Shown here: piece by piece, positions 1,650-62,082 of the stretch
Position numbering within the stretch: the stretch's first letter is position 1
Layout of the letters: each line of letters opens with the position of its first letter
DNA from: Thermodesulfovibrionales bacterium
GTDB lineage: Bacteria > Nitrospirota > Thermodesulfovibrionia > Thermodesulfovibrionales > UBA1546
Direction of reading: 5' to 3'
DNA: 64,000 nt
Assembly (NCBI GenBank): GCA_049302185.1
Contig: JBAQLV010000013.1
Location: 166,084-230,083 of the forward strand
Notes under the pieces: model-generated
Told to the model about the DNA's origin: nothing
What the model saw: only the letters and a program-made list of their open reading frames with translations
The model's database searches: none
Position numbers and translations under genes: made by a program

Positions 1650-3440
1650 TCATCCTCCAAGCCGTGCCTTAAGTTCCTTCAACTGCTTTTCAAGCCTTTC
1701 AGGCAGACGGCTGCCGAATGTTGCAAAATGTTTCTCAATATCCAGTATCTCAGCCTTCCATTCATCAAGGTCAACCTTCGTAAGCTCTTCCATGTTTTCA
1801 GCAGATAGCCCTATGCCATTAAGGTCAAGGCCTCGATCCACAGGCAATAAACCTATAGCTGATTTCTTTGCGTCAACCTTGTTGTCTGTGCGTTCGCACA
1901 TCCACTTAAGCACACGGCTGTTGTCGCTGAATCCGGGCCATAAAAATCTTCCATCATGGTTTTTCCTGAACCAGTTAACATAGAAAATCCTCGGGGCTTT
2001 AGAGCCGAGCCTGTCGCCTATATTGAGCCAGTGCTGAAAATAATCACCCATATTGTAGCTGCAAAAAGGTTTCATGGCGAAAGGATCCCTTCTCAAATTA
2101 CCAACTTCTCCGATATTGGCGAATGTGGTCTCAGAGGCTGCGGTTGCACCGAGGAAAACACCATGTTCCCATGAATAAGCCTCATAAACCAAAGGGACAA
2201 CACTGCTCCTTCTGCCGCCGAATATGAAAATATCTATAGGAACGCCATTTGGGTTTTCCCAGTCTTTGCAAATCACCGGGCACTGGGACGCAGGCGCCGT
2301 AAAGCGGGCATTAGGATGTGCTGCATCGCCCTTGCTTTCAGGTGTCCAGTCATGCCCCTTCCAGTCAATGAGATGGGATGGGACATCATCATTAATACCT
2401 TCCCACCACACATCACCGTCATCTGTAAGGGCGCAGTTAGTGAAAATAACATTCTCTTTCAGAGTATCCATTGCCATAGGATTGGTGTCATAAGAAGTGC
2501 CGGGAGCCATGCCAAAGAAGCCGTTTTCAGGGTTAATGGCATAAAGGCGTCCGTCAGTGCCAATCTTCATCCACGCAATGTCGTCGCCGATGCATTCGCA
2601 TTTCCAGCCTTTGATTGAAGGCTGCATCATGGCTAAATTAGTCTTGCCGCAGGCAGATGGGAATGCAGCAGCAATGTGATACTGCTTTCCCTCAGGATTG
2701 GTGAGTCTCAGTATGAGCATATGCTCTGCCATCCAGCCTTCTCTTTTGGCGATAGCAGATGCTATTCTCAGCGCAAGGCATTTTTTGCCGAGCAAAGCAT
2801 TGCCGCCGTAACCTGAACCGAATGACCATATCAGGTTTTCCTCAGGGAAATGGCTTATGTATTTTTTCTCAATCGGAGCGCAGGGCCACTGGACATCCTT
2901 CTGTCCCTTGGCTAATGGCGCGCCTATTGAATGGAGGCAGGGAATAAAATCCTCACCCGCATTAAGAAGTTCCATGACTCTGGCGCTTACGCGGGTCATG
3001 ATATGCATGCTTATAACAACATAAGGGCTGTCTGTAATCTCTACCCCTATCTTTGAGATTGGAGAACCTATCGGCCCCATTGAAAAAGGAATCACATACA
3101 TTGTGCGTCCCTTCATGCAGCCCTTGTATAGCTGCTTCATGGTGTCTTTTAGTTCAATTGGATCAATCCAGTTATTTGTAGGGCCTGCCGCATCTTTTGT
3201 GGATGTGCTTATGAATGTGCGGTCCTCAACGCGCGCCACATCGCTTGGGTCAGAGCGGAAAAGATAGCTGTTAGGCCGTTTCTTAAGCGGAATGGCGCTG
3301 CCGCTTGCAATCAGCTTTGACATCATAAGGTTATACTCTTCCTTAGTCCCGTTACATAAATAAATATCATCAGGCTGGCACATCTCTGCAACTTCTTTAA
3401 TCCAGTTGTTCAGTTTTTCATTTTTTGTCAAAGCAGGCAT
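1650..3440 (-). CDS. pckG: Phosphoenolpyruvate carboxykinase (GTP)
   Basis: 596 aa with GTP-PEPCK signatures: [13 protein letters not shown] (P-loop), [13 protein letters not shown] (kinase-1a), WMAEHMLIL; the length is typical of the family. Confidence 0.95.
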
Positions 3441-3506: not shown

Positions 3507-3553
3507 TAACCCCACCCAGCCTCCCCTTATTTAAGGGGAGGTGTGGAGGGGTT
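3507..3553. repeat. GC-rich nested hairpin upstream of pckG (AACCCCACC-cag-CCTCCCC-ttatttaa-GGGGAGG-tgt-GGAGGGGTT)
   Basis: Shares the ACCCC(T)CACCC…CCTC(C)CC…GGGGAGG modules with 1545-1576. Confidence 0.6.
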
Positions 3554-3716
3554 ACCTTCAGCGTCAGCAAATATATTCAATTATACGAATTATGCCATCA
3601 GAAAATCCAGAGTCATGCGCAGTCAGTGGTTTTAGGTGAAGAGCTTAATTGACTTTAACATGGAAAACTATTATAGTTAAAACTGCTTTGAAAAAATTAT
3701 TAGACAGGTTAATATT

Positions 3717-6871: not shown

Positions 6872-7265
6872 TGGTCTTATTCTCTCTGCCTTCTGAACCT
6901 TCTATGAATACCATTACCCTGTTAGGAAGGCATACGACTGCGCCTCTGTCTATCCATCCCTGATGCACGCATATTTTATTGGGGCAGGGGGATTCTTTTA
7001 TCCGCACCTTTCTGTTTTTAATTTCCACTACGGTGTCTCCGTTTATGCCTTTCACAGCGATTGTTGCATTGCTGTTGAGCGGAAGTTTGTATGCGAGCTT
7101 CCCGTTAACTTCAATTCTGACATCTGTTCCCTGAGGGAATGCCTCTTTAATAAAAATAAACCCTGAGATAGATATGATTATAAGCACTGCGAGCAGCAGT
7201 ATGTCCGCAAGCGTCATTCTCTCAGTCAGTTCTTTTTCGCCTCTGCGAATCTCCGATAATTTCAA
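6852..7265 (-). CDS. NusG domain II-containing protein (DUF1312), N-terminal TM anchor
   Basis: 137 aa with one N-terminal TM helix and a beta-rich domain (VRIEVNGKLAYKLPLNSNATIAVKGINGDTVVEIKNRKVRI). It overlaps both neighbours, so it is in an operon with apbE and the Gx transporter gene. Confidence 0.55.
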   Translation of the reverse strand: MKLSEIRRGEKELTERMTLADILLLAVLIIISISGFIFIKEAFPQGTDVRIEVNGKLAYKLPLNSNATIAVKGINGDTVVEIKNRKVRIKESPCPNKICVHQGWIDRGAVVCLPNRVMVFIEGSEGRENKTIDAITG

Positions 7266-8346
7266 GCTTTCCTCTCAGGTTTGGTGTTATGTGTATTTTG
7301 CCATTTTTATCCACAATTATTCCATCAATCCCCATCTCCTCAAGGAGTTTAATGCCTTTTTCAGCGCCGAGTATAAATATGCCTGTTGAAAAAGGGTCTG
7401 TTACAGAGCCGTCTTTTGCAATGATGCTTACGCTTTGACACCCATCGGCGGGATAGCCTGTTTTTGGATTAAGGATATGATGGTATCGTTTCCCTTCAAT
7501 AATAAAGTATCGCTCGTAATCTCCGGATGTTGATATTGCCATGTCAGTCATCTCTATAGTTGCCATAATCTCATCCGAAAATCCCCCATAACCCCCCTTT
7601 ACTAAAGGGGGGTTATGGGGGATTGCTCTTGGGTTTCTTATCCCTATCTTCCACGGCTTTGAATCAGGCTTTAAACCAAATGCTTTAATGTCACCTGCAA
7701 TGGATACGAGCCCTGATTTTATGCCTTCTCTTTTCAGCGCTTCCATTGTCTTGTCAGCAGCATATCCCTTTGCTATGCCTCCGAGGTCAATAAGCATTCC
7801 TTTTTTCTTGAGATAAACAGATGACGATTTTTTGTTGAGTATTATATTTTTATAGTTTACAAGCGGAAGCCTTTCTTTGATTTTTTTGTCTTCAGGTTTT
7901 GTCCTCTTATGAAAATCCCACAGGGTTGTTACAGAGCCTATTGTCACATCAAATGCGCCGTTGGTTTTTCCGGAGGCATAGACTGCCTTCTCAAGAACTG
8001 CAAATGTCTCCGGAGACACTACCACAGCTTTCAAGCCTGCATTTCTGTTTATCTCTGAAAGCTCGCTGTTGTCAGAGAAGAAATTCAGTAGCCTGTCAAG
8101 TTTTTCTATCTCCGAGAACGCCCTGTCTATTGCTTTCTCTGCATCATGACCAGAGCCTGAGACAACGCTTATTGTTACTGTGGTATCCATCACTATCCTG
8201 CTTTTGCGGTAAACCTTTTCCTTTTGAGGACTGCAGGCGCTGAGAGTGAATAGTGAATAGTGAATAGTGAACAGCAGGAAAACAGTGAACAGTGAAAGAA
8301 TAAAAAATTTGAATTTTGAATTTTGAATTTTAAACTTTTTTATCAT
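7222..8346 (-). CDS. apbE: FAD:protein FMN transferase ApbE, lipoprotein
   Basis: 374 aa; lipobox LSAC after a signal peptide; ApbE family motifs (TIGSVTTLWDF, IDLGGIAKGYAAD, AISTSGDYERYF). It carries an in-frame palindromic insert (IPHNPPLVKGGYGGF) and a heptamer-repeat-encoded signal peptide. Confidence 0.85.
   Translation of the reverse strand: MIKKFKIQNSKFKFFILSLFTVFLLFTIHYSLFTLSACSPQKEKVYRKSRIVMDTTVTISVVSGSGHDAEKAIDRAFSEIEKLDRLLNFFSDNSELSEINRNAGLKAVVVSPETFAVLEKAVYASGKTNGAFDVTIGSVTTLWDFHKRTKPEDKKIKERLPLVNYKNIILNKKSSSVYLKKKGMLIDLGGIAKGYAADKTMEALKREGIKSGLVSIAGDIKAFGLKPDSKPWKIGIRNPRAIPHNPPLVKGGYGGFSDEIMATIEMTDMAISTSGDYERYFIIEGKRYHHILNPKTGYPADGCQSVSIIAKDGSVTDPFSTGIFILGAEKGIKLLEEMGIDGIIVDKNGKIHITPNLRGKLEIIGDSQRRKRTD
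7581..7623. repeat. Nested palindromic element copy 1 (ATCCCCCATAACCCCCCTTTA-C-TAAAGGGGGGTTATGGGGGAT), in-frame inside apbE
   Basis: 21 bp perfect arms. Encodes IPHNPPLVKGGYGGF on the minus strand. Confidence 0.8.
8245..8335. repeat. Heptamer tandem arrays (AGTGAAT)n / (AACAGTG)n / (TTTTGAA)n encoding the apbE signal peptide and N-terminus
   Basis: Period-7 repeats read directly from the sequence. Translated on the minus strand they give MIKKFKIQNSKFKFFILSLFTVFLLFTIHYSLFTLSA. Confidence 0.7.
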
Positions 8347-14840: not shown

Positions 14841-15178
14841 CCCATGTGAACCGAAGCGGTATTTTTTCTTTCTTCCTTGTCCCTCTGTCCGTAGCGCTTA
14901 TTTTGTTCGGCATCTTCTCAATTGTATGGCTGAGGTCAAGTGTAAGGACAGCAGAATACAGTATTGCCGCGCTTGACCACAGGAGGATGGAAATCCTCAG
15001 GGACAGAAAGACTCTGATGGCAGAGAAGGCAGGCCTTCTGTCAATACAGAGCGTTAAAAGCAAGGGCAGCGGAAAACTCGCTTTGGTTTTCCCTGACAGA
15101 ATAAAAGTAGTTTATGTAAAAAAGGATGGGAAGAACGCTCCATTTAAGGCATCTTTAGAAGTGAGAAGTGAGAAGTGA
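14837..15178 (+). CDS. ftsL: Cell division protein FtsL-like (single-TM bitopic)
   Basis: 113 aa with one N-terminal TM helix and a coiled-coil-like periplasmic part. ATGA overlap with the rsmH stop; it sits between rsmH and ftsI as in canonical dcw clusters. Confidence 0.6.
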   Translation: MTHVNRSGIFSFFLVPLSVALILFGIFSIVWLRSSVRTAEYSIAALDHRRMEILRDRKTLMAEKAGLLSIQSVKSKGSGKLALVFPDRIKVVYVKKDGKNAPFKASLEVRSEK

Positions 15179-15232
15179 GAAGTGAGAATTTAAAACTTCT
15201 TCTTACTTCCTACTTCCTATTTCTTACTTGAA
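15157..15232. repeat. (GAAGTGA)4 array, spacer ATTTAAAA, then an imperfectly complementary (TTCCTAC)4 array at the ftsL/ftsI junction
   Basis: Period-7 arrays in inverted orientation. Mismatches are mostly G/A, which would be G-U pairs in RNA. The ftsL stop codon lies inside the first array. Confidence 0.7.
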
Positions 15233-16950: not shown

Positions 16951-17002
16951 GAGGCAGGATATGGTATTCTCGCTCATTCTCATCCCGATAAAATCGGGAC
17001 AG
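16951..17002 (+). repeat. Copy C (partial) of the 3'-end element after ftsI (…GTATTCTCGCTCATTCTCATCCCGATAAAATCGGGAC…), followed by a second hairpin CGCCTC-N13-GAGGCG
   Basis: About 85% identity with 49990-50036 over 47 nt. Confidence 0.5.
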
Positions 17003-17067: not shown

Positions 17068-18642
17068 ATGAACTTGAGGATGCTTATAAAAGATATGGAG
17101 ATAAATGAAATAATAGGCAGCGCTGATGTTGATGTAACTGGAATTGCCTATGACTCAAGGAAGGTCAAGGCAGGCGATGTCTTTGTTGCCGCAAAGGGAG
17201 AAAAGCATAACGGCCATGATTTTATCAGTGATGCGGTCAAGAAAGGCGCACTTGCAGTGGTTCATGAAAAAGCAGTAAACAGTCACTACCCCCCACTGCC
17301 CCCCCTTAGTAAGGGGGGGATTGAAGGGGGGGTAGTTTTTATCTCTGTCAGTGACAGCAGGGAGGCTCTTGCGTATCTTTCCAATAATTTTTACGAGAAG
17401 CCGTCCGATAAGTTGACTGTCATTGGAGTAACCGGAACTAATGGAAAAACAACGGCAACGTATCTTATAAAGTCAATTCTTGAGGCATGGGGAAAAGATG
17501 TCGGGCTGATAGGCACTATAAATTATCTTGTGAAGGACAGGCATTATGACGCCCCTCATACCACGCCTGAGGCGCTTGAGTTTCAGGCTGTATTGAACGA
17601 GATGGTTTCAGCGGGATGCAGCCATGTAGTGACAGAGGTATCATCCCATGCGCTTGCGCAGAAGCGGGTGGACTATACGGGTTTCAGTGTTGCAGTTTTC
17701 ACAAATCTTACAAGAGACCATCTGGATTTTCATATAACGATGGAGGAATATTTCAGGGCAAAGGAAAGACTGTTTAAAGAACTTCTTTTGAAAGACGGGA
17801 CGTCTGTAATAAATTTTGACGACCCTTATGGAAGGAGATTGATCTCCGAACTCAAGACATCGCAGCAAGGCGCGGCAAATCTACGGGATTCAAAAGCTGA
17901 AAATGTGATTACATACGGCATTGAAGCAGGAGCGGATATTGTTGCAGTAAATATTAAAAACTCATTTGACGGACTCTTGTTTGATATTAATTTCAATGGC
18001 AGGACATACAATATTCAGTCGCCGCTTATAGGTACGCACAATGTCTACAACATACTCTCTGCCGTAGGCGCTGCCGTGAGCCTGAATGTGCCGTGGGATA
18101 TGATAATAAGCGGAATAAAGAATATGGGTTCTGTAAAGGGAAGATTTCAAAAGGTTGACCTCGGACAGAATTTTCTCTGCATAGTTGACTATGCGCATAC
18201 AGAGGATGCGCTTGAAAGGCTGATATGCGCCGCCAGAGAGCTTATCAGCCAGCCACCGAAGTCACGCATTATGCATCACACCCCGCGTATTATTACTGTC
18301 TTTGGCTGCGGCGGCGACAGGGACAGGGGAAAGAGGCCGAGAATGGCCGCAATAGCAACAAAACTGAGCGATTACGTTGTGATAACCTCTGATAATCCCC
18401 GCAGCGAAGAACCGATGGAGATAATAAAAGCGATAGAGAAAGGCGCATTGAGGATGAATTATACAATTGAACCCGACAGGGAGAAGGCTATTCAGAAGGC
18501 GGTGGAGACCGCAGAAGAAGGCGATATACTGCTGATTGCAGGAAAGGGGCACGAGGATTATCAGGAGATAAAAGGCGCAAGGCATAAATTCAGAGATAGA
18601 GAGATAGCGGAGAAGGCGATAAGGAGATTATGGCGATTTTAA
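17068..18642 (+). CDS. murE: UDP-N-acetylmuramoyl-L-alanyl-D-glutamate--2,6-diaminopimelate ligase MurE
   Basis: Mur ligase P-loop [10 protein letters not shown] and the DNPR motif (TSDNPRSEEP) that marks meso-DAP-adding enzymes. Contains an in-frame palindromic insert YPPLPPLSKGGIEGG. Confidence 0.9.
   Translation: MNLRMLIKDMEINEIIGSADVDVTGIAYDSRKVKAGDVFVAAKGEKHNGHDFISDAVKKGALAVVHEKAVNSHYPPLPPLSKGGIEGGVVFISVSDSREALAYLSNNFYEKPSDKLTVIGVTGTNGKTTATYLIKSILEAWGKDVGLIGTINYLVKDRHYDAPHTTPEALEFQAVLNEMVSAGCSHVVTEVSSHALAQKRVDYTGFSVAVFTNLTRDHLDFHITMEEYFRAKERLFKELLLKDGTSVINFDDPYGRRLISELKTSQQGAANLRDSKAENVITYGIEAGADIVAVNIKNSFDGLLFDINFNGRTYNIQSPLIGTHNVYNILSAVGAAVSLNVPWDMIISGIKNMGSVKGRFQKVDLGQNFLCIVDYAHTEDALERLICAARELISQPPKSRIMHHTPRIITVFGCGGDRDRGKRPRMAAIATKLSDYVVITSDNPRSEEPMEIIKAIEKGALRMNYTIEPDREKAIQKAVETAEEGDILLIAGKGHEDYQEIKGARHKFRDREIAEKAIRRLWRF
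17287..17335. repeat. Nested palindromic element copy 2 (CTACCCCCC-actg-CCCCCCC-TTAGTAA-GGGGGGG-attgaa-GGGGGGGTAG), in-frame inside murE
   Basis: Encodes YPPLPPLSKGGIEGGV. Same architecture as the copies at 7581, 26075 and 45924. Confidence 0.8.
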
Positions 18643-21105: not shown

Positions 21106-22265
21106 TTATGAGACAGTCAACAGAGCAACAGAGCAGTAGAGCAACAGAGCAGCAGTCTTTAGTACAGAAATCTTTAGCAACTGCGCTACTGAGCTACTGC
21201 GCTACTGGGCTGCTGCGTTTCTGGGCTACTGCTCTTATCTCACTGTTCGCTGTTCACTGTTCACTGTTCACTGCTTATGCTGATGAGATTTCCTCAAAGG
21301 CAGCGGTTGTTATGAAGGTTTCAACAGGAAGGGTCCTGTTTGCAAAAAATCCAAATCTGAAACTGCCTCCTGCAAGCACAACTAAACTTGTGACAGCCAT
21401 GGTTGTTCTTGACAGGGCTAAGATGAGCGATACAGTGACAATCAGTGAGGCAGCGGCAAATGTCCCCTCGCTTAAGAAGACCAAACTGAGGGCAGGAGAG
21501 ACTTTGACTGTAGAAACTCTGCTTTACGCTGCGCTTATAAGGTCGGCAAATGATGCAGCCTTTGCGCTTGCAGAGGTTGTTGCCGGCTCGGAGAAGAAAT
21601 TCGTGCAGCTTATGAACAGAAAGGCTATAGCAATAGGAGCATCCAACACAAGGTTTATAAATACTACAGGACTTCCCGGCAAAGGTCAGCATACAACAGC
21701 ATATGACCTCTCAAAGATAATGAGGTATGCGCTTAAATATCCTGTGATAAAAGAGATTATAGGCAAGAAAGAGGCAGAGATAGCTACGGAACAGGGCAGG
21801 ACTATAGCCCTTGAAAATACGAATAAACTTCTATGGTCTGATAACGGAGCAGTCGGCGGCAAGACAGGATATACGAAAGCGGCAAGGCATTGTTTTGTGT
21901 ACGCAGGCGAAAGAGAAGGAGAGATGGTGATAGTTGCTATTCTTGGAGCGCGGAGCAGAGAGATTTTATGGAATGAGGCGGAGAAGCTCGAAACAAGAGG
22001 TTTTGCTGTTATTGCAAGCAATGAGCAGCCGGTTGTTTATTTCACAAAGGCGGATTATCAAAAAAGTTCAAAGTTCAAAGTTCAAAGTTCAAAGTTAAAG
22101 ACATATTCAAAAAATAATAAAGCAAAATCAGATAAGGTTGCATCAAAAAAGAAGCTGAATAAGGCAAAGGCCACTAAAAAGTACAATGACAGCCCCGCAA
22201 AGGAGAGCAAAAGAACAAAGGATAAAGGGATCGCTAGAAACGTGGCATATGGAAATAAGGGATAA
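21102..22265 (+). CDS. dacC: Serine-type D-Ala-D-Ala carboxypeptidase (PBP5/6-like, peptidase S11) with a repeat-encoded N-terminus and a Lys-rich C-terminal tail
   Basis: SxxK (ASTTKLV), SxN (RSANDAA), KTG (GKTGYT) active-site triad. The N-terminal 60 aa and part of the C-terminal tail are encoded by heptamer tandem arrays. The true start may be internal. Confidence 0.8.
21105..21295. repeat. Series of heptamer arrays ((AACAGAG)n, (CTACTG[ACG]G)n, (CACTGTT)n) forming the first ~190 nt of the dacC-like ORF
   Basis: Period-7/8 repeats read directly from the sequence. Confidence 0.7.
22065..22100. repeat. (AAGTTCA)4-5 array near the dacC 3' end
   Basis: Period-7 repeat; encodes [10 protein letters not shown]. 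Confidence 0.7.
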
Positions 22266-23706
22266 GAAAATACTTGTTTTCGGCCTTGCAGAGAGCGGTG
22301 TTGGCGCTTCAAATCTGCTTGCCGGCCTTGGCGCAAAGGTAACGGTTACTGACAGAAAACCGAAGGAAGCGTTAATGAAATATGTTGAAAGGCTTTTGCC
22401 TGCGGTAAGGCTCAGTCTTGGCGGGCATCCTGACGGGATACTGCAAGGCGTGGATATGATAGTGCTAAGTCCCGGTGTGCCGCCTGACATACAGCCGTTG
22501 AAGAAGGCTATGGAGATTGGGATAAGGATTATCGGCGAACTTGAACTTGCGTATCAGATAATAAGTTCAAAATTCAAAGTTCAAAATTCAAAGCTTCCAA
22601 AATTTCTGGCGATAACAGGAACAAACGGTAAATCAACCACTACAACATTATTAAATGAGATGTTAAATAAAGGAGGCTTCAGGACAATTCTGGGAGGGAA
22701 TATCGGAAATGCCCTGACAGAGGAGATATTTGGATTAGTCAGAAGTCAGAAAACCGATGATGATTTTCTGATAACTCTTAACTCTCAACTCTCAACTCTT
22801 AACTACGTGGTCGCTGAGGTGTCAAGTTTTCAGCTTGAGGCGATAGAGATGTTCAGGCCTGATGGCGCATCCATACTCAATATCACACCTGACCATATGG
22901 ACAGATACCATTCAATGGAAAAATACAAAGACGCAAAGGCGCAGATATTCGCAAACCAGAGAGAAGGAGATTTTCTTGTCCTTAATGCGGATGACCCTGA
23001 GACACTCAAAGTTAGAAGTGAGAAGTTAGAAGTGAAAAGTGAAAAACCAAGAATCTATTATTTCAGCCGCAAAAAAGCGGTAGAAGGGGTCTATTTCAAA
23101 GATGGAGTTATTTATTCTAACTTCAACTCTTCACTCTTAACTCTTAACTCTCAACTTCTGCGTGCTGATGAGATAAACATTAAAGGTGTTCACAACCTGG
23201 AGAATGCCATGGCTGCTTCGGCCATGGCTCTCCTTGCAGGATGTCCGGCAGATGCAGTTATAAGCGCCTTGAAAGATTTTGAGGGGCTTGAACACCGTCT
23301 TGAACTTGTCAGGGAATTTGAAGGCGTTGATTACATCAATGACTCAAAAGGCACGAATGCAGATGCGGTGGTAAAGTCGCTTGAAAGTTTTTCAATGCCA
23401 GTAATCCTGATTGCAGGCGGAAGAGACAAAGACGGAGATTTTTCTCTTCTGAGTTCTCTCATAAAAAGCAGAGTAAAAAAACTCGTTCTCATCGGAGAGG
23501 CAAGGGAAAAAATAAAAAAAGTTCTTGGCGGACTGACAGAGACCATATTTGCAGATAATCTGGAAGAGGCTGTGATGATATCCAGAAAATCAGCATCAAA
23601 AGGCGATGTTGTGCTCCTCTCTCCCGCATGCGCAAGTTTTGATATGTTCAGGGATTACAAAGACAGGGGAGAGCAGTTTAAAAAGATTGTGAAGGGTTTA
23701 TCCTGA
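22249..23706 (+). CDS. murD: UDP-N-acetylmuramoylalanine--D-glutamate ligase MurD (with four in-frame heptamer-array inserts)
   Basis: Rossmann N-terminus [19 protein letters not shown], Mur ligase P-loop ITGTNGKSTTT. The start was moved to the ATG at 22249 ([13 protein letters not shown]). Low-complexity inserts: SSKFKVQNSKL, LNSQLSTLN, VRSEKLEVKSEK, NSSLLTLNSQLL. Confidence 0.9.
   Translation: MEIRDKKILVFGLAESGVGASNLLAGLGAKVTVTDRKPKEALMKYVERLLPAVRLSLGGHPDGILQGVDMIVLSPGVPPDIQPLKKAMEIGIRIIGELELAYQIISSKFKVQNSKLPKFLAITGTNGKSTTTTLLNEMLNKGGFRTILGGNIGNALTEEIFGLVRSQKTDDDFLITLNSQLSTLNYVVAEVSSFQLEAIEMFRPDGASILNITPDHMDRYHSMEKYKDAKAQIFANQREGDFLVLNADDPETLKVRSEKLEVKSEKPRIYYFSRKKAVEGVYFKDGVIYSNFNSSLLTLNSQLLRADEINIKGVHNLENAMAASAMALLAGCPADAVISALKDFEGLEHRLELVREFEGVDYINDSKGTNADAVVKSLESFSMPVILIAGGRDKDGDFSLLSSLIKSRVKKLVLIGEAREKIKKVLGGLTETIFADNLEEAVMISRKSASKGDVVLLSPACASFDMFRDYKDRGEQFKKIVKGLS
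22564..23157. repeat. Four separate heptamer arrays inside murD ((AGTTCAA/AATTCAA)n at 22564-22594; (AACTCTC/AACTCTT)n at 22773-22803; (GAAGTGA/GAAGTTA)n at 23010-23045; (AACTCTT…)n at 23119-23157)
   Basis: Period-7 repeats; each insertion length keeps the frame. Confidence 0.7.
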
Positions 23707-26032: not shown

Positions 26033-26074
26033 ACAGTGAATGATAAACAAAAGGATGCAGGATACAAGATACAA

Positions 26075-26117
26075 CCCCCCTCTATCCCCCCTTAGTAAGG
26101 GGGGAATTAAAAGGGGG
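26075..26117. repeat. Nested palindromic element copy 3 (CCCCCC-tctat-CCCCCC-TTAGTAA-GGGGGG-aattaaaa-GGGGG), intergenic, upstream of murC
   Basis: Read directly from the sequence; ends 23 nt before the murC ATG. Confidence 0.8.
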
Positions 26118-26139
26118 TATCGTGCATCATGAAGGAGCG

Positions 26140-27564
26140 ATGGTGTTTGAACAATACAGAATAATTCACTTTGTCGGCATCGGAGGTATAGGGATGAGCG
26201 GGATAGCAGAGGTCCTTCATAACCTCGGCTACGAAGTCACAGGTTCGGATGTTAAGGAGTCTGATACGACAAACAGGCTGAACAGCCTCGGCATAAAGGT
26301 AGATATCGGACACAGAGCGGAAAATGTCGATGATGCCCATGTTGTGGTTATATCCTCTGCTGTTTCTAAGGACAATGCTGAGGTGGTTGAGGCAAAAAGA
26401 AAATCAATCCCTGTAATCCCGAGAGCTGAGATGCTTGCTGAACTCGCAAGGATGAAATACGGGATACTCGTTGCAGGCGCGCACGGAAAGACAACAACGA
26501 CTTCGTTAATCGCAACAGTGATTGCAAGCAGCGGGCTTGACCCTACAGTTGTTATAGGAGGAAAACTCAGGGCTACAGGAAGCAATGCAAGATTGGGGCA
26601 GGGAGATTTCCTTGTGGCAGAGGCTGACGAGAGCGACGGTTCATTCCTCAGGCTTTCTCCGACCATCGCAGTTGTGACGAATATAGACAGGGAACACATG
26701 GATTTCTTTAAGACAATGGATTCATTGAGAGATGCTTTTCTGTCTTTCATAAATAAAGTCCCGTTTTATGGAGTGTCGATAGTATGCATTGAAAATGAGG
26801 AGCTTCGTAAGCTGCTGCCTTATGTGCATAGGAGATATATCACATACGGACTCTCGCCTGACGCTGATGTGTATGCTGCTGATATAAAGAAAGGGTTTAT
26901 GACAGTGAGTTTTGATGTCGTGTATAAAGGGGGAAATCTTGGCAATTTCAGCCTGCCTGTGCCCGGTGTGCATAACATCCTCAACAGTCTCGCAGCAATA
27001 ATAGTTGCAAGGGAATTGAAGATAGAGGCAGGCCTAATAAAAGAGGCTCTGAAAAAATTCAGCGGGATACAGAGGAGATTTGAATTAAAAGGAGAAGAAA
27101 AAGGGATAAAGGTTTTTGATGACTATGGACATCATCCTACCGAAATAAAAGCGACTCTGAATGCGGCAAAGGATGGGCTTCTGGCCCGGCAGGTCGTTGC
27201 GACTCGCAACCGAGGCGCAGGGAGATTATTTGTTATATTCCAGCCTCACAGATATACGAGGACAAAAGACCTTATGGATGAGTTTACACCCTGTTTTTCT
27301 GAAGCTGACATTCTTTGCTTGATGGACATATATTCTGCAGGTGAAAAGCCTATAAATGGCATTGATTCCAATGCGCTGCTTGACCGCATCAAAAAGACAG
27401 GGCATAAGGATGCTGCTTATTTTCCCGACAGAGGGAAACTCATGGAAAATCTTCTTATGAGATTGAAAAGCGGAGACGTGGTTTTCACGCTCGGCGCAGG
27501 AGATGTCTGGAAACTCGGTGAGGAGATATTAAAGAGAATAAAGGACAGGGGAGATGGCAAATAA
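26140..27564 (+). CDS. murC: UDP-N-acetylmuramate--L-alanine ligase MurC
   Basis: IHFVGIGGIGMSGIAEVL N-terminus, Mur ligase P-loop GAHGKTTTTS. The start was moved to the ATG at 26140, which has the RBS AAGGAG. Confidence 0.9.
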   Translation: MVFEQYRIIHFVGIGGIGMSGIAEVLHNLGYEVTGSDVKESDTTNRLNSLGIKVDIGHRAENVDDAHVVVISSAVSKDNAEVVEAKRKSIPVIPRAEMLAELARMKYGILVAGAHGKTTTTSLIATVIASSGLDPTVVIGGKLRATGSNARLGQGDFLVAEADESDGSFLRLSPTIAVVTNIDREHMDFFKTMDSLRDAFLSFINKVPFYGVSIVCIENEELRKLLPYVHRRYITYGLSPDADVYAADIKKGFMTVSFDVVYKGGNLGNFSLPVPGVHNILNSLAAIIVARELKIEAGLIKEALKKFSGIQRRFELKGEEKGIKVFDDYGHHPTEIKATLNAAKDGLLARQVVATRNRGAGRLFVIFQPHRYTRTKDLMDEFTPCFSEADILCLMDIYSAGEKPINGIDSNALLDRIKKTGHKDAAYFPDRGKLMENLLMRLKSGDVVFTLGAGDVWKLGEEILKRIKDRGDGK

Positions 27565-28510: not shown

Positions 28511-29468
28511 AAAGATAGGCGTTTTAATGGGCGGCATATCCAGCGAGAGAGAGGTTTCGCTGAGAAGCGGGGGCGCGGTTTTCAATGCCCTGAAAAAACT
28601 CAGGTATAACGCTGTTGCTATAGATGCTGCGTCAAACATATGCGAGGTGTTGAAAAAAGAGAAGATTGATATAGCATTTCTTGTTCTTCACGGAGGCTGG
28701 GGAGAAGACGGCTCTATACAGGGGCTTCTTGAAGTTATGGGAATTCCTTATACAGGGTCTGATGTCATTTCCTCGGCGATTGCAATGAACAAGGCGGCGT
28801 CAAAGAAGATATTTTTTTATCACAGAATTCCATCTCCGCCATTCATAATAGTTCGGAGTTCGGAGTTCGGAGTTCGGAGTTCGTTGCAAGGATATGATCT
28901 CAAAACTCAAAACTCAAAACTCAAAACTGATTTTGAAATGCCGTGGGTTGTCAAACCTGTATGTGAAGGGTCAAGCGTTGGTGTGAGCGTAGTGAAGGAC
29001 AAAGCCCAGATTGAAAGCGCGCTCAAGAATGGTTTTTCATACGGCAACGAGATAATCATAGAAAAATACATAGAGGGCAAGGAAGTCCATATAGGGATTA
29101 TTAATGACAGGGCGCTCGGAGGTGTTGAGGTAAAGACATCACTTGAATTTTACAGCTACGAGGCAAAATACACAGCAGGTTTAACTGAATATATACTCCC
29201 TCCTAAAATAGAGGAAGCAGTGTATATGAAGGCAAAAGATATTGCCCTTTCAGCGAACAGAGCGCTCGGTTGTTCAGGAGCGACAAGGGTTGATTTGAGG
29301 ATTGATAATGACGGCAATCCCTATGTGCTTGAAGTTAACACAATACCGGGCATGACAGAAACAAGCCTCTTGCCGAAGATTGCAAAGGAGGCGGGATTTG
29401 ATTTCCCGGCGCTTGTGGAGGAGATTCTTAAAGACGCAATTGAAAGAGAGCAGAAAAGGCATAGATGA
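28497..29468 (+). CDS. ddl: D-alanine--D-alanine ligase Ddl (with in-frame heptamer-array inserts)
   Basis: ATP-grasp; N-terminal [18 protein letters not shown]; C-terminal [16 protein letters not shown]. Inserts [10 protein letters not shown] and [10 protein letters not shown] are encoded by (GTTCGGA)n and (CTCAAAA)n. Confidence 0.9.
28855..28931. repeat. (GTTCGGA)4 and (CTCAAAA)4 arrays inside ddl
   Basis: Period-7 repeats; encode SSEFGVRSS…[10 protein letters not shown]. Confidence 0.7.
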
Positions 29469-30244
29469 GGAATAACAGAAGGATAAATAAGCAAACAGCA
29501 GCGCCAAGAACTAAAAAACGGCGCTGTCTGCTTAAATTGTTTGCACTGGTTTTGCTTATAACAGGCGCATACTGGGGCGCTAAATATGCCATTGATACTG
29601 CACGCAGGACGCTGTTCCCGGTAAAAGAAATTGTGTTTTCAGGCAACAAACATATCTCCGAGAGCGAGCTAAAGGCAATCATGGGAATTAACGGAAATGA
29701 GAGTCTTCTTGGATTATCATCAAAAGAACTTGAGGCAAGGCTTTTGAAATCTCCGTGGATAAAGGCAGTCAGCTTCAGAAAGGATTTTCCGCACAGGTTT
29801 ATAGTCAGGATTGAGGAGTCAATGCCCTATGCGCTTCTTGAGATGAACGGCCGCACATTCTTTGTGGACGACAAAGGCAATCTGCTTGAAGAATTAAAAG
29901 GCGAATCCATACCGTTTTTGCCGATAATCTCAGGGGACCTGTTCAAAAACAGCAGTGTATTTTCTGAGGTATTGAATCTTGTAAGGACAATGAAGGATAA
30001 AGGTTTCATAGCTGTGAAGGATCGCATAGAGATCATAATACCGCATGGAGCAGGGCCAGAGGATATTTCGATGCAGGTTGACGGCATGCTCGTAAAAGTC
30101 GGGCATGGAGAATATGAGGAGAAACTTCAGAGGCTGCTTGAGCTTGAAGATGAGATAATGCGGAGAGGAATTCCTGTTGATTATATTGACCTCAGATTTG
30201 CAAACAAGGTCATAGTTAAACCGATAAACGAGGTCATAAGATGA
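29465..30244 (+). CDS. ftsQ: Cell division protein FtsQ (POTRA domain)
   Basis: Basic N-terminus, a single TM helix, POTRA-like segment ([22 protein letters not shown]); position between ddl and ftsA. Confidence 0.7.
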
Positions 30245-31572
30245 GAATAAGAGATCCGCTTGGACGAAAAGGAAATATTGTCGTCGGGCTTGATGTCGGC
30301 ACAACCAAAATATGCGCCATCGTAGGCGAGGTTAGAGGCGGCAAGACTGATATTATAGCCATAGGTTCGGCCCCATCAACAGGTTTAAGAAAGGGTGTTG
30401 TGATAAATATAGAATCTACTGTTGATTCAATAAAGAAGGCAGTAAAAGATGCCGAGGCAATGGCAGGCATTGAGATAAAGTCTGTTTATGTCGGGATTGC
30501 CGGAGGGCATATAAAGGGTTTTGAGAGTTATGGGGCTGTCGGCATAAAAGGGAAAGAAGTAAAGCCTCAGGATGTTGAGCGCGCCATAGATTCTGCAAGC
30601 GTTGTATATGTTCCGCTTGACAGAGAGGTTCTTCATGTAATCCCCACTGAATTCATACTTGACGGACAGGATGGGATAAAAGACCCGGTTGGCATGGCAG
30701 GGGTCAGGCTTGAGGTAAAGGTTCATATAGTTACAGGCGCTGTGCCGTCTGTGCAGAATCTTCTTAAGTGCTGCGAGAGAGCAGGCATTGATGTCATTGA
30801 TATTGTGCTTGAGCCTATTGCCTCTGCAGCGGCAGTGCTTACGGAAGACGAGAAAGACCTCGGCGCCGCGCTCGTTGATATAGGCGGAGGAACAACAGAC
30901 ATCGCGATATATAAAGATGGAAGCCTCAGGCACACAGCGGTTCTTGCGCTTGGCGGCAATCATTTTACGAATGATATCGGTATTGGTTTGAGAATCCCTG
31001 TGCAGGAGGCGGAGAGGATAAAGAAAAAATATGGCTGTGCGATTACAAGTATGGTTGATGAGGCAGAGGAGATGGATGTTGCAGGCGCAGACAAACAGGT
31101 AAGGAAAATACCGAGGCGGTATATCGCAGAGATTATACAACCGAGGTGTGAGGAACTTACAGAATTGATAAAGCGTGAAATAGAAAACAGTTCCGGACTT
31201 GAGCCCGGATTGTCTGGGGTTATTTTGACAGGCGGAGCATCCCTGCTTGCAGGGCTTGACAGGTTAATGGAGGCAAATCTGGGACTTTCGGTGAGAATCG
31301 GAATGCCTGATGGGATAGAGTCAAGCTGCGCTTCAAACTCACCTCTCTTTCAGAGTAATGTGAATAATCCGATGTATTCAACAGGGGTAGGCCTTATTCT
31401 CCACAGCATAGATGGAGAGCCTGTCCCGAACGCTTTCGGGATTAATGGAGATATGTTCAACGGGATATTTGACCGGATGAAGGAATGGGTAAGAAATCTG
31501 TTCGGTGTTAATGGTCATGAGTTGAGAGGTAAGTCCCGAACGCTTTCGGGATCAATGAGGCAGAGGATATGA
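30241..31572 (+). CDS. ftsA: Cell division protein FtsA (actin-like ATPase) with an unusual C-terminal extension created by a direct repeat
   Basis: Actin fold phosphate-1/2 motifs (VVGLDVGTTKICAIVGE, DIGGGTTDIAIY) and an amphipathic membrane-targeting helix (GIFDRMKEWVRNLF), followed by about 21 extra residues. Confidence 0.9.
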   Translation: MRIRDPLGRKGNIVVGLDVGTTKICAIVGEVRGGKTDIIAIGSAPSTGLRKGVVINIESTVDSIKKAVKDAEAMAGIEIKSVYVGIAGGHIKGFESYGAVGIKGKEVKPQDVERAIDSASVVYVPLDREVLHVIPTEFILDGQDGIKDPVGMAGVRLEVKVHIVTGAVPSVQNLLKCCERAGIDVIDIVLEPIASAAAVLTEDEKDLGAALVDIGGGTTDIAIYKDGSLRHTAVLALGGNHFTNDIGIGLRIPVQEAERIKKKYGCAITSMVDEAEEMDVAGADKQVRKIPRRYIAEIIQPRCEELTELIKREIENSSGLEPGLSGVILTGGASLLAGLDRLMEANLGLSVRIGMPDGIESSCASNSPLFQSNVNNPMYSTGVGLILHSIDGEPVPNAFGINGDMFNGIFDRMKEWVRNLFGVNGHELRGKSRTLSGSMRQRI

Positions 31573-31766
31573 GCAACAGAAAAGTTAGAAGTTAAAAGTT
31601 TAAAGTGAGTTTTTGTCATTGTCCTCCTCCGGCTTGACCGGGGGATTGACCGGACAATCCAGAACATAGTGAAAACACTGGATTCCCCGATCAAGTCGGG
31701 GAATGACATTAATGTAAATGTACAATTTATGGACAGACACTATTAACTATAAAAGGGGGGTGTTTT

Positions 31767-35425: not shown

Positions 35426-35500
35426 ATGATACAGGATGCAAGATACAAGATGCAGGATAAAAAACATTGTGTATCATGCATCGTGCATCATGTATCGTTA
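35426..35500. repeat. (GATACAA/GATGCAG)n array followed by a (TGCATCG/TGCATCA)n array upstream of lpxI
   Basis: Period-7 repeats in partly inverted orientation. Confidence 0.6.
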
Positions 35501-44984: not shown

Positions 44985-46013
44985 CTAAAAATCAAATGTA
45001 ACTGTCTCTGAAGGTTCGCTCTCTTTAAGCGGCCCGACAGCAGTTACCCTGTATGTGTGCTTAATCCCTGTTTTCTCTCTTAAAGTGAACGCAGGGGTCA
45101 CGGATTCTTTTACGAGGTTGAATCCGTCTTTTTCATTCACTTTATCGTAAATCCTGTATTTTGTCACCCACATCTCAGGATTTTCTTTCCATGAAATAAC
45201 GACTCTATCGTCTGCGACAACTGTTTGAAACCCTTCGGGCTTTGTCGGGATAAAGGTTGAAGGGTCAACCTTTATTTCCACTGATGCCTGTCCTTCACTC
45301 CGGAATTTCTTGCTCAAAAGACTGCGGATTGTATAATAAACAGGACTGCCTGTTTCCAGATTGTCGGAATATTTGAGCGCTGTCATCGGTTCTTTATTGA
45401 TTGGGTTGATACTGTATTTGCCTTTCTCGGCGCTTCTGTAAACATTATAAAGGATATTTTCACCTGCGCTATCCCATGAGATGTGCAGGGCATCATTGCC
45501 AACCTTGAATGAGATATTCTTCGGAGCAGGAGGAACAGCTTCAGGTTTTATTGCAATTATGTTTGAATCCTCGCTGAGGATGTTTTTCAGGCTTCCGGCA
45601 ATGAGTTTGTATTTATAAAGAGCGCCTGTCTTAAAATTAACATCTGTGTAGGAATTTTCCTCCTTGGGTACGGACGCTATTTTCTGAAAGCTGCTGTCTT
45701 CTGCCCTGAGAATATGAAATTCTTTCAGGTTTTCTTTTTTTGAAGTGTACGACCATGAGAGGAAAATTCTGTCTTCTCTGTGTATTGCCTTAACAGCCGC
45801 AGGCGCAGAGGGTTTTTCATATGCTTTGAGTGTAGGAGGTCCTTTTTTCCCGCAGGAGACAAGCATGAGGCAAGCAGCAAACAACAAAAAAGATGCACGA
45901 TACACGATGCATGATGCCTGATACCCCCCTTTAATTCCCCCCTTACTAAGGGGGGATAGGGGGGGGTTGTATCCTGCATCCTGTTTTAACTGCTGAGTGC
46001 TGACCGCTTTCAT
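44985..46013 (-). CDS. Hypothetical lipoprotein with fibronectin-III-like beta-sandwich repeats; the N-terminus is built from repeat elements
   Basis: Signal peptide plus lipobox (LMLVSCGKK). Upstream of that, the ORF reads through a nested palindrome ([15 protein letters not shown]) and a heptamer array, so the true start is probably internal. Confidence 0.5.
45924..45968. repeat. Nested palindromic element copy 4 (CCCCCC-tttaatt-CCCCCC-TTACTAA-GGGGGG-atag-GGGGGGGG), within the 5' region of the lipoprotein ORF
   Basis: Encodes [15 protein letters not shown] on the minus strand, in the same relative frame as in murE. Confidence 0.8.
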
Positions 46014-49981: not shown

Positions 49982-50060
49982 AAGACAGGACATAGTATCC
50001 TCGCTCATTCTCGCCCCGATAGGATCGGGGCTCCGAGGATTTTGCCTCATGATTTTTATA
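49982..50060 (+). repeat. Copy A of a ~75 nt conserved double-hairpin 3'-end element (AAGACAGGACAT…TCGCTCATTCTCG-[hairpin]-TCCGAGGA-TTTTGCCTCAT), immediately after the pnp stop
   Basis: Near-identical copies at 44899-44970 (reverse orientation) and 16951-17002. The inner hairpin is GCCCCGATaggATCGGGGC, nested in an outer stem CCTCG/CGAGG and followed by TTTTG. Confidence 0.6.
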
Positions 50061-55547: not shown

Positions 55548-55827
55548 TTCGCCATTATTTCAGTCATTCCCGAGAAAGTGGGAATCTATGATGCAGCAAT
55601 ACGCAACACAAATAAAATGCTGGATCCCTTTGATATGCCTTTTGCCTATGACCCTGCCACAGGCAGAGTCTGGTCCATCAAAAAAGGTTTTGAGAACCGG
55701 TGACCTTTACCCCGCTCGGATTTTCTAATGGGGTTTACAAGTTCAATTTCAGACTGGTAATATAGCAAGTGTCCGTGATTAGTGTCAGTGAGTAATAATT
55801 ACTGACACTCACAACTGACACTGCACT

Positions 55828-55924: not shown

Positions 55925-56012
55925 AACGGCAGTTAGTTAAAAGTTGAGAGTGAAAAGTGAAAAGTTTTAGAGACTCGAAACTTCTAACTTTCAACTTTAA
56001 ACTTTTAACTTA
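55925..56012. repeat. Long inverted heptamer-array hairpin (GTTAAAAGTTGAGAGTGAAAAGTGAAAAGTT-ttagagactcg-AAACTTCTAACTTTCAACTTTAAACTTTTAAC) immediately 3' of tRNA-Ser(GCU)
   Basis: Inverted repeat of period-7 units; a likely transcription terminator for the tRNA. Confidence 0.6.
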
Positions 56013-56672: not shown

Positions 56673-56782
56673 AACGAATTTGCTTCAGCAAAATTCGAAG
56701 TCGTTAAAGACAGTGTATAGTGAATAGTGAACAGTGAATAGAACTGAATACTATTCACTCGGGTCTGTCAACTATTTCTCTG

Positions 56783-61180: not shown

Positions 61181-62082
61181 TGGAGACTGATTTAAAGGAT
61201 ATAAAATTCCTCAGGCGCGGAAAGGTGCGCGATGTCTATGAGATAGATGACTATCTTCTGATAATAGCTACTGACAGGGTATCAGCCTTTGATGTCGTTC
61301 TTCCGAATGGAATTCAGGATAAGGGCAAAATCCTTACTCAGATATCAATATACTGGTTTAACCAGATGAAAGACATAATGGAAAACCATATTGTTGCAAC
61401 AGATGTAAAAGACTATCCAGAGGTTTTACATAAATACAAAGACATTCTTGAAGGAAGAAGCATGCTCGTTAAGAAGGCAAAGCCGATGCCTGTTGAATGC
61501 ATTGTGAGGGGGTATCTCTCAGGCTCGGGATGGAAGGAATACAAAAAATCAGGCACAGTCTGCGGCATTAAACTTCCCGATGGGCTTGTTGAATCCGCAA
61601 GGCTTGATGAGCCGATATTCACTCCAAGCACAAAGGCAGAAGAGGAGCATGACATAAACATAAGCTTTGATGAGATGAAAAAGATTGTCGGTGATGATAC
61701 TGCAAACAAGCTCAGGAATACAAGCCTCAGAGTCTATAAAAAGGCGAGGGAGATGGCAGAGAAGAAGGGAATAATAATCGCAGATACAAAGATGGAATTC
61801 GGCATATATCAAGATGCAGGATGCAAGATGCAGGATGCAAGCAGTCGGAAAGGGAAGTTGATTCTGATTGATGAAATACTCACTCCTGATTCATCACGCT
61901 TCTGGTCTATGAAGGATTATAAGCCCGGAAAAAGTCAGGACAGTTTTGACAAGCAGATTATCCGCGACTATCTTCTTACGCTTGACTGGAACCAGACATA
62001 TCCCGGCCCAAAACTTCCTGATGAAATCGTGGAAAAGACTGCTGCGAGGTATAGGGAGATATTGGGGATATTGACGGGGTAG
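61165..62082 (+). CDS. purC: Phosphoribosylaminoimidazole-succinocarboxamide synthase PurC
   Basis: SAICAR synthetase motifs ([30 protein letters not shown]); the ATG at 61165 has the RBS AGGAGG. Carries an in-frame heptamer insert ([11 protein letters not shown]). Confidence 0.9.
61801..61846. repeat. (CAAGATG/CAGGATG)n array inside purC
   Basis: Period-7 repeat encoding [13 protein letters not shown]. Confidence 0.65.

Follow-up and report, generated by a model that had tools for sequence, protein, structure and literature searches.

Here we report the analysis of a family of very small palindromic DNA elements found in a 64,000-nt stretch of the genome of a Thermodesulfovibrionales bacterium from the Nitrospirota phylum (contig JBAQLV010000013.1, positions 166,084 to 230,083; this whole 64-kb stretch is called the window below). 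The window represents core chromosome with a G+C content of ~44% throughout, and includes the dcw cluster, argH, the PNPase gene, tRNAs, and other housekeeping genes. The open reading frames (ORFs) tested with Pfam are of the housekeeping type, and the nearest homologs of the window proteins are found in Nitrospirota/Thermodesulfovibrionales metagenome genomes. Two copies of the element are located in frame within apbE and murE, the third one occupies the spacer between murG and murC, and the fourth one lies between argH and the signal-peptide core of a lipoprotein gene. An earlier note, made from the sequence alone, had pointed out four nested palindromes in the window, and they were read exactly as it described them.

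All four copies follow the plan AAT-C5-7-N-C5-7-TT(T)A[G/C]TA(A)A-G5-7-N-G5-7-ATT and measure 43-50 nt, typically ~45 nt. The C and G runs and the AAT/ATT ends are conserved, the spacers between the runs are variable, and the palindrome reaches to AAT...ATT, three bases beyond the outer runs and not further. Copy 1 is a perfect nested palindrome with 22-nt arms around a 1-nt center, AATCCCCCATAACCCCCCTTTA-C-TAAAGGGGGGTTATGGGGGATT, with a DNA hairpin energy of -25 kcal/mol (z = -9.5). In copies 2 to 4, a C run, a spacer, and another C run are followed by TTAGTAA or TTACTAA and then by a G run, a spacer, and a G run, the spacers being unequal. The element folds as a hairpin with an internal loop, which in copy 2 is asymmetric (ACTG versus ATTGAA); as RNA, the hairpins have energies of -38 to -45 kcal/mol (z = -3.7 to -8.3). 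The inner unit of the element, TCCCCCCTTAGTAAGGGGGGA, is 21 nt long. The 19-nt core pattern CCCCCYTWASTAARGGGGG has four matches in the window, exactly the four copies, and none in 100 dinucleotide-preserving shuffles of the same DNA. A looser pattern gave five matches, versus 0.035 expected in the window. The extra one (3507-3554, no strand given) is a decayed relative with the sequence TAACCCCACCCAGCCTCCCCTTA-tt-TAAGGGGAGGTGTGGAGGGGTTA, located in the spacer from which the PEPCK and M50 peptidase genes diverge.

Copy 1 (7580-7624, minus strand) is in frame in the apbE ORF at 7222-8346 (minus strand) and encodes IPHNPPLVKGGYGGF, and copy 2 (17286-17335, plus strand) is in frame in murE (17068-18642) and encodes YPPLPPLSKGGIEGG. 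Pfam confirmed the identity of both ApbE, an FAD:protein FMN transferase, and MurE. The earlier note had given the correct translations in these genes and in a third ORF, and its reasoning that the TTAGTAA core contains stop codons in one of the three frames on each strand is right by inspection. Both inserts correspond to alignment gaps, the ApbE insert versus PDB 7esa and 1vrm, and the MurE insert against solved MurE structures. In an AlphaFold2 model of ApbE (mean predicted local distance difference test score, pLDDT, of 81), insert residues 241-257 have pLDDT below 50 and are modeled as a coil linking strands 231-236 and 259-265. The suggestion that copies are retained at permissive positions is thus borne out by inserts in loops that are absent from solved homologs and modeled as disordered. 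The in-frame copies (e.g., 17289-17332) also bring C6-C8/G6-G8 runs and PPxPP motifs into essential genes, which represent potential hot spots of slippage frameshifts and of ribosome pauses that depend on elongation factor P (EF-P).

Copy 3 (26075-26117, plus strand) is intergenic, between murG, which ends at 26032, and murC, and forms the core of a composite hairpin at ~26052-26135 with heptamer repeats as its outer arms, GGATGCA GGATACA AGATACA ... TATCGTG CATCATG. The murG/murC spacer is ~105 nt long in the window versus 14-22 nt in the relatives L121 and L122, and the true start of murC is probably the conserved ATG near 26141. Copy 4 (45924-45968, minus strand) is located between the argH stop codon (46010) and the hydrophobic core of the lipoprotein signal peptide, within a composite at ~45892-45990. 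Copies 3 and 4 are near-identical and both are centered in inverted heptamer arrays (GGATGCA/GGATACA ... CATCGTG/CATCATG), and thus they represent a larger composite of ~100 nt.

The earlier note placed three copies inside ORFs. The MurE and ApbE copies are indeed intragenic; the lipoprotein copy precedes the hydrophobic core of the signal peptide and is outside the mature protein, whichever start codon is used. It is either part of a long n-region of ORF 44985-46013, in frame and cleaved off, or, with GTG (V37) as the start, part of the 5' leader. The GTG start would yield a textbook signal peptide, and the alignment with lipoprotein orthologs of 300-335 residues begins at query residues 39-46; the ATG overlapping the argH stop codon and the first ten codons (MKAxxxQQLK) are conserved in a 56%-identical ortholog without the element. 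The longest-ORF starts of murC (26122-26143) and murD (22186-22251; conserved ATG at 22249) overshoot the conserved starts because the upstream repeat-derived sequence is open in frame. Such frames are a likely source of misannotated N-termini in these genomes.

The family extends far beyond the four copies of the window. A census with the 19-mer core pattern in one genome per species (596 Gb) identified at least 119 loci, from which 128 copies were sampled. By estimate, ~35 chance matches to the 19-mer alone are expected in 596 Gb. One or both outer arms, which are absent from the search pattern, accompany 120 of the 131 core matches (the 128 sampled and the window's own), and therefore chance is ruled out. 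The loci are distributed among Nitrospirota (at least 38 loci; 36 of 42 copies two-armed), Cyanobacteria (at least 32, mostly one-armed), Thermodesulfobacteriota (at least 12), Planctomycetota including anammox genera (at least 11), Pseudomonadota (at least 9), Ignavibacteria/Bacteroidota (at least 4), and Nitrospinota, Chloroflexota, Acidobacteriota, and Armatimonadota (at least 1 each). The full architecture with outer arms is present in Nitrospirota, Cyanobacteria, Thermodesulfobacteriota, Planctomycetota, and Nitrospinota, and several further phyla have the core with one arm. The copies end in AAT/ATT in most Nitrospirota cases and in GATC in cyanobacteria. Among the carriers are isolates and complete plasmids, including Crocosphaera watsonii WH 8501, Lyngbya PCC 8106, Fischerella PCC 7521, Geminocystis NIES-3709, where the copy is within an annotated helicase CDS, and Gloeothece PCC 7822, where it is located between cas5d and cas7d. 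The center varies (TTAGTAA, TTACTAA, TTATTAA, TTTATAA, TTGCTAA, TTTAGAAAA, and others), so the strict pattern undercounts the family. Phage sequences hold few copies, only ~8 family-like ones in IMG/VR and none in the GenBank phage set, and phage vectors as carriers were rejected on these grounds.

Copies were counted as intragenic if the ORF around them stays open for 60 codons or more in each direction, and 51 of the 128 sampled copies (~40%) are of this type. Pfam verified AlaRS as a host gene twice, with different insertion sites in Lyngbya PCC 8106 and in a Nitrospiraceae genome; the other verified hosts are QueA, with two copies, PurL, a molybdopterin oxidoreductase, and a radical SAM enzyme. 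As the earlier note had observed in the window, intragenic copies are found only in stop-free frames; all four such frames and both orientations are used, which argues that no particular peptide is selected. The sense-strand orientation common to the window copies is due to chance, since the intragenic sample has no bias (23 versus 28); one-armed copies have a weak orientation bias, 43 to 24. The two spacers of a copy are perfectly complementary in 5 of 54 pairs (null mean 1.5), and structural covariation in the spacers was accordingly rejected. The pair TTTAATT / A.ATAG recurs in window copies 3 and 4 and in loci L069, L079, and L107, and the same unequal spacers across genomes point to common descent or copying of the sequence, not to convergent selection for a stem. 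General targeting of hairpin loops was also rejected. Seven of 120 copies lie in a larger palindrome, and the arrangement of window copies 3 and 4, which do so, is thus a feature of their subfamily only.

Comparison of orthologous genes revealed that murE, apbE, and murD, as well as the murG/murC spacer, occur both with and without the element, so that it is not a conserved protein motif. For ApbE, the loop is filled in 56 of 119 orthologs and empty in 63, and the two states are interleaved on a neighbor-joining tree of all 119 proteins, requiring at least 24 state changes. Outside the loop, the identity within three filled/empty pairs is 99.4%, 97.8%, and 95.7%. In the DNA, 12 nt encoding a 4-residue turn in the empty allele correspond to 45-48 nt in the filled one. 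Some filled alleles carry secondary inserts inside the element, a 36-nt G+C-rich one in locus L127 and two other hairpins in L128, and several others have PIPPLPRGGKRG-type centers. Between the window and L132, the apbE element is 91% identical and the flanking 200 nt are 69-74% identical. L132 also has a second copy in the N-terminal leader of ApbE (3045-3130; NPPLPPFTKGGRGGI), followed by five TTACTTT heptamers. A different hairpin, CCCCTCCC-TCGAT-GGGAGGGG, is located at 1609-1629 of the window, ~20 nt past the PEPCK stop codon, and its near-identical match is nested in the ApbE element of a relative (L128, 10791-10817).

The murE element is common to the closest orthologs (85-99% identity), with small changes such as the TTGCTAA center in L121. 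Orthologs at 82-90% identity that lack it have unrelated heptamer-repeat sequence in the same loop, and distant orthologs have independent element variants there, IPPLNTPLGKGGNGEV, NPPLPPFAKGGMGG, and NPPLPPFTKGGGVGI. No clean empty site was found in MurE, as every lineage examined has some repeat module in the loop. The MurD loop is occupied by the element in L121 and by a GGATGCA/ATCATGC heptamer palindrome in L122; both the window and L124 have heptamer arrays there. Among the 82-93% identical orthologs of the relatives L121-L124, both the MurE loop (17270-17345) and the MurD loop (22720-22810) are hypervariable, with modules (heptamer array, heptamer palindrome, or G/C palindrome) that differ by lineage within highly conserved flanking DNA. 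In the peptide-carrying orthologs whose DNA was examined (MurE of L121; ApbE of L127 and L132), the palindrome is present too. The density of the element also differs between relatives, from five per 64 kb in the window to none in L122 and L123 (21 kb each); the 42 kb of L124 and L128 contain no intact copy and one decayed copy in ApbE.

These observations are probably best explained by a non-autonomous selfish mini-palindrome, which selection confines to the frames and loops that tolerate it. The existence of the repeat family, its polymorphism, its permissive positions, the filter on frames, and the spread across phyla are shown by the data, and it is the copying mechanism and the selfishness of the element that we infer. 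New copies would be written into the chromosome from existing ones via a trans-acting factor, recombination, or template switching. Purifying selection would purge the copies that break genes, and therefore the survivors would be found in stop-free frames and tolerated positions, such as surface loops, signal-peptide leaders, and turns between domains, which could accommodate an insert of 12-16 residues (PP[LF]x[KR]GGxGG); other copies would reside in short spacers. A resident copy may be inherited, decay, be deleted, or be swapped among strains as a short patch, and it may also take secondary hairpin insertions, thus acting as a landing pad. The family would be either transferred between phyla or very old.

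A number of results weigh against the selfish-element explanation. In the 53 two-armed copies, no direct repeat of at least 3 bp, as expected for a target-site duplication, was found at any of five offsets, and the only recurrent end repeat is the self-complementary AT, which is a part of the palindrome. GTAG or GTGG is present within 10 nt of either end in none of these copies, and CGTC is near the ends in one, so there is no CGTC tag. Clustering of 1,956 ORFs from the 119 loci yielded only generic families (ABC transporters, kinases, TPR proteins) and no linked transposase; neither was a Y1 gene seen near the copies in these element-centered loci. An insertion sequence (IS) with such ends was not found either, since all 150 left half-sites in ~1 Mb run straight into the right half and none flanks a gene. 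The elements that flank a gene in L077 enclose an amidohydrolase-like gene (recognized by eye from its translation) and not one for a REP-associated tyrosine transposase (RAYT). The junctions of the filled/empty ApbE pairs have neither a duplication nor a clean empty site. In the 99.4%-identical pair, 11 of the 16 substitutions lie within ~35 nt of the indel, and this clustering suggests an exchanged patch (allele recombination) rather than a fresh insertion. The higher conservation of the ApbE element than of its flanks could mean functional constraint. Finally, the census selects for an intact core among the matches listed.

Classical cut-and-paste transposition is disfavored by the lack of target duplication and by junctions of the replacement type, and the candidate routes left are single-strand hairpin-directed insertion, template switching, and gene conversion. 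The transposition proposed in the earlier note was therefore not upheld: inspection of the flanks for target-site duplications was negative for all 53 copies, no clean empty site was found, and the filled ApbE allele replaces 12 nt. A bolder version of the selfish-element explanation, which we offer tentatively, is that the element is actively propagated in several unrelated phyla, at least five of which have both-armed copies, without target duplication or an element-linked transposase. A candidate agent would be a widely conserved host enzyme, or a horizontally mobile one, that recognizes the hairpin of C and G runs and copies it into DNA through patch replacement or template switching. If such multi-phylum propagation were true, few known mobile DNAs would match the element in small size and breadth of distribution, and it would act as a general supplier of loop insertions to essential proteins.

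The main rival explanation, which we regard as unlikely, is a hairpin useful to the host as RNA or as cruciform DNA, for instance, within operons, in mRNA processing or stability or as a pause site for transcription or translation, or as a nucleoid/topoisomerase binding site, that spreads by ordinary duplication and recombination. Nucleoid/topoisomerase-site or similar roles have been proposed for repetitive extragenic palindromic (REP) sequences and bacterial interspersed mosaic elements (BIME). The great stability of the RNA folds is consistent with such a function, as are the retention of the C/G runs and AAT/ATT ends while the spacers vary, the better conservation of element DNA than of flanks between distant apbE genes, and the position of both intergenic copies inside operons, ~20-60 nt before the next start codon (depending on the start). 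However, ~40% of the copies occur in unrelated ORFs at unrelated positions, near-identical strains differ in the presence of the element, no copy occurs in 21 kb of the same conserved division and cell-wall (dcw) gene cluster in close relatives, and decayed or interrupted copies are common. In addition, a scan for intrinsic terminators around both intergenic copies called none, with tails of at most ATTTT, and Rfam has no family at the element sites, the three tRNAs being the only window matches above the gathering threshold; the terminator and known-RNA explanations were rejected by these two results.

Recombination drive is an explanation to which we give little credence. DNA patches with an uptake- or recombination-favored motif would be preferentially taken up, or fixed via homologous recombination or gene conversion, and molecular drive would let the motif accumulate at tolerated sites. 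This agrees with the clustering of substitutions beside the ApbE indel, with the interleaving of filled and empty alleles on the ApbE tree, each state having its own conserved sequence, and with the absence of target-site duplications. Yet it leaves the new non-homologous sites unexplained (MurE, MurD, the helicase, and AlaRS at two positions), and a single uptake specificity common to several phyla is implausible. Known uptake sequences are also much denser than this element, which occurs at ~1 per 13 kb.

Another explanation would treat the peptide PP[LF]xKGGxGG as the selected unit (a flexible linker, or a binding or modification site), with the palindrome as a codon by-product. The same peptide type indeed occurs in many proteins, but the existence of intergenic copies and the diversity of frames, four of them with differing peptides (LSK, LTK, FSK, FTK, LVK, LLK, LVR), effectively refute this explanation, which is further contradicted by orthologs that function without the insert, by the modeled disorder of the insert, and by a DNA palindrome that is kept where the peptide would permit synonymous change. 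Lastly, an artifact, be it a chimera from assembly or sequencing or a mix-up of DNA between metagenome bins, suggested by the prevalence of metagenome-assembled genomes among the carriers and by at least one 'Patescibacteria' match with cyanobacterial-looking GCGATCG beside the element, is effectively refuted by copies in isolate genomes and complete plasmids and on 0.5-2.3 Mb contigs from other phyla, as well as by orthologous sites conserved in independent assemblies.

Full-text searches for the nucleotide and peptide strings of the element and for descriptive terms revealed no description of it in the literature covered, nor did the supplements of two REP surveys yield a match. The element is unusual in its C/G-run architecture, its very small size, the ~40% intragenic share, and the occurrence in many phyla. 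Among the known repeat systems, Rickettsia palindromic elements (RPEs), reportedly described by Ogata et al. in 2000, are similar in that they are dispersed palindromes located in frame, at tolerated surface sites, in genes that remain functional, and are read as selfish with no known transposase. The element has this RPE-like trait of in-frame insertion at tolerated positions (MurE, ApbE; AlaRS, QueA, PurL). RPEs are ~100-150 bp long, restricted to Rickettsia and relatives, and have a CGTC terminal tag (PMC3733652), whereas the element has ~45 nt, C/G runs, no CGTC tag, and a distribution over many phyla. REP sequences, with a 5' GT[AG]G foot, flank a gene for RAYT (TnpA-REP, of the Y1 HUH type) and are mostly extragenic, some being intragenic, and one subclass in the REP/RAYT literature occurs in Cyanobacteria and various other phyla (PMC3733652, PMC6006769). 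They resemble the element as short G+C-rich hairpin repeats that are at times in frame within genes; in contrast to them, all 53 copies of the element lack a GTAG/GTGG foot, the surroundings of the copies in the 119 loci revealed no Y1 gene, and ~40% of the copies are intragenic. Miniature inverted-repeat transposable elements (MITEs), such as Nezha and Chunjie, have 70-400 bp, target-site duplications, and a parent IS with the same terminal inverted repeats (PMC3184786). They are likewise non-coding, consist essentially of two inverted terminal repeats, and can fuse with ORFs, but the element is smaller, lacks target-site duplications in 53 copies, and has no parent IS seen in ~1 Mb. The description as REP/MITE-like in the earlier note holds for a dispersed palindromic repeat. 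As the REP foot (GTAG), the target-site duplication, and the parent IS of MITEs were not found, it is valid only as an analogy.

The nearest lead, by description alone, is provided by the small dispersed repeats SDR4, SDR5, and SDR6 of heterocyst-forming cyanobacteria, reportedly 21-27 nt long (Elhai et al. 2008 are said to have described them). By these descriptions, the repeats are likewise very small and mobile-looking, nest in other repeats, occur near heptamers and the HIP1 palindrome, and have no known function or mechanism. SDR5 is reportedly inserted in HIP1 between bases 3 and 4, GCG|ATCGC. The 21-nt inner unit of the element equals the reported SDR5 length. SDR5 is reported in few heterocystous cyanobacteria only, inserted into HIP1 (PMC5861425, PMC4390886, bioRxiv 10.64898/2026.06.24.733823), whereas the element is present in non-heterocystous cyanobacteria and in four or more phyla besides, a number that rises when one-armed copies are included. 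With regard to HIP1 junctions, cyanobacterial copies of the element end in GATC, and a single GCGATCCCC junction was found beside the element, in a non-cyanobacterial contig. Tandem heptanucleotide repeats, such as the short tandemly repeated repetitive (STRR) sequences of cyanobacteria and the TAACTGA repeats of Beggiatoaceae, are direct, mainly intergenic, and proposed to be regulatory (PMC4679880). The window is full of period-7 arrays, two of the element copies are centered in inverted heptamer arrays, and the phyla rich in heptamers partly overlap those carrying the element; the heptamers, however, are a separate sequence class that merely accompanies it.

If the element is a true mobile family, insertions of 12-16 residues into MurE, MurD, ApbE, AlaRS, and PurL would be routine in several phyla, beyond Rickettsia, and would provide core genes with loop variation, EF-P-dependent PPxPP motifs, and slippage-prone C/G runs. 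Such a mobile unit would be far smaller than MITEs and, having no target duplication, would imply a copying mechanism not yet described. Nitrospirota, cyanobacteria, sulfate reducers, and anammox bacteria have it in identical architecture, which would then provide a precise marker of an exchange of DNA between these groups or of an enzyme common to them. A practical effect is on annotation, with inflated ORF calls, spurious 'hypothetical proteins', and wrong start codons, as for murC here.

Some copies found in the census have further rearrangements. The copy pairs at 1938 and 3391 in L077 and at 2649 and 2735 in L036 have identical flanks and opposite central bases, TTTAGTAAA versus TTTACTAAA, which suggests flipping of the center via recombination within the palindrome or template switching. 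In Microseira sp. BLCC-F43 (L089, 28-160), four units form a head-to-tail, minisatellite-like array with a 33-nt period, CCCCCCTTAGTAAGGGGGGGATAGACCCCCTGC.

The heptamer repeats of the window are numerous, ~31 period-7 tandem arrays in 64 kb, 17 of them inside long ORFs (MurD, a P-type ATPase, the N-terminus of ApbE, and others). Examples are located at 8245-8331, 15157-15229, 21240-21273, 22063-22100, 22563-22804, 23008-23156, 28850-28928, 35428-35498, 59506-59585, 59778-59850, and 61810-61841. Many of the arrays are inverted pairs able to fold as long hairpins, and they resemble the STRR and TAACTGA repeats. Two heptamer palindromes of the arm family of copies 3 and 4 have an AAAAA center in place of the G/C core: the one at 35428-35498 (no strand given) is intergenic, and the one at 59778-59850 (plus strand) is in frame in the P-type ATPase gene (58445-61180). 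Genes for tRNAs are flanked by heptamer-built palindromes, e.g., (AGTGAAA)n ... (TTTCACT-like)n, at 55768-55822, 55935-56010, and 56712-56759. A second hairpin family, CCCGA-N(1-8)-TCGGG, has five copies in the window versus 0.2 expected (16984-16998, 31425-31440, 31535-31550, 31686-31700, and 50015-50029) and further ones in L121 at 3433, 8095, and 20398. Two identical hairpins of this family are present in ORF 30241-31572, and in the MurD genes of relatives, in-frame gains of 6-17 nt create CCCGA/TCGGG hairpins.

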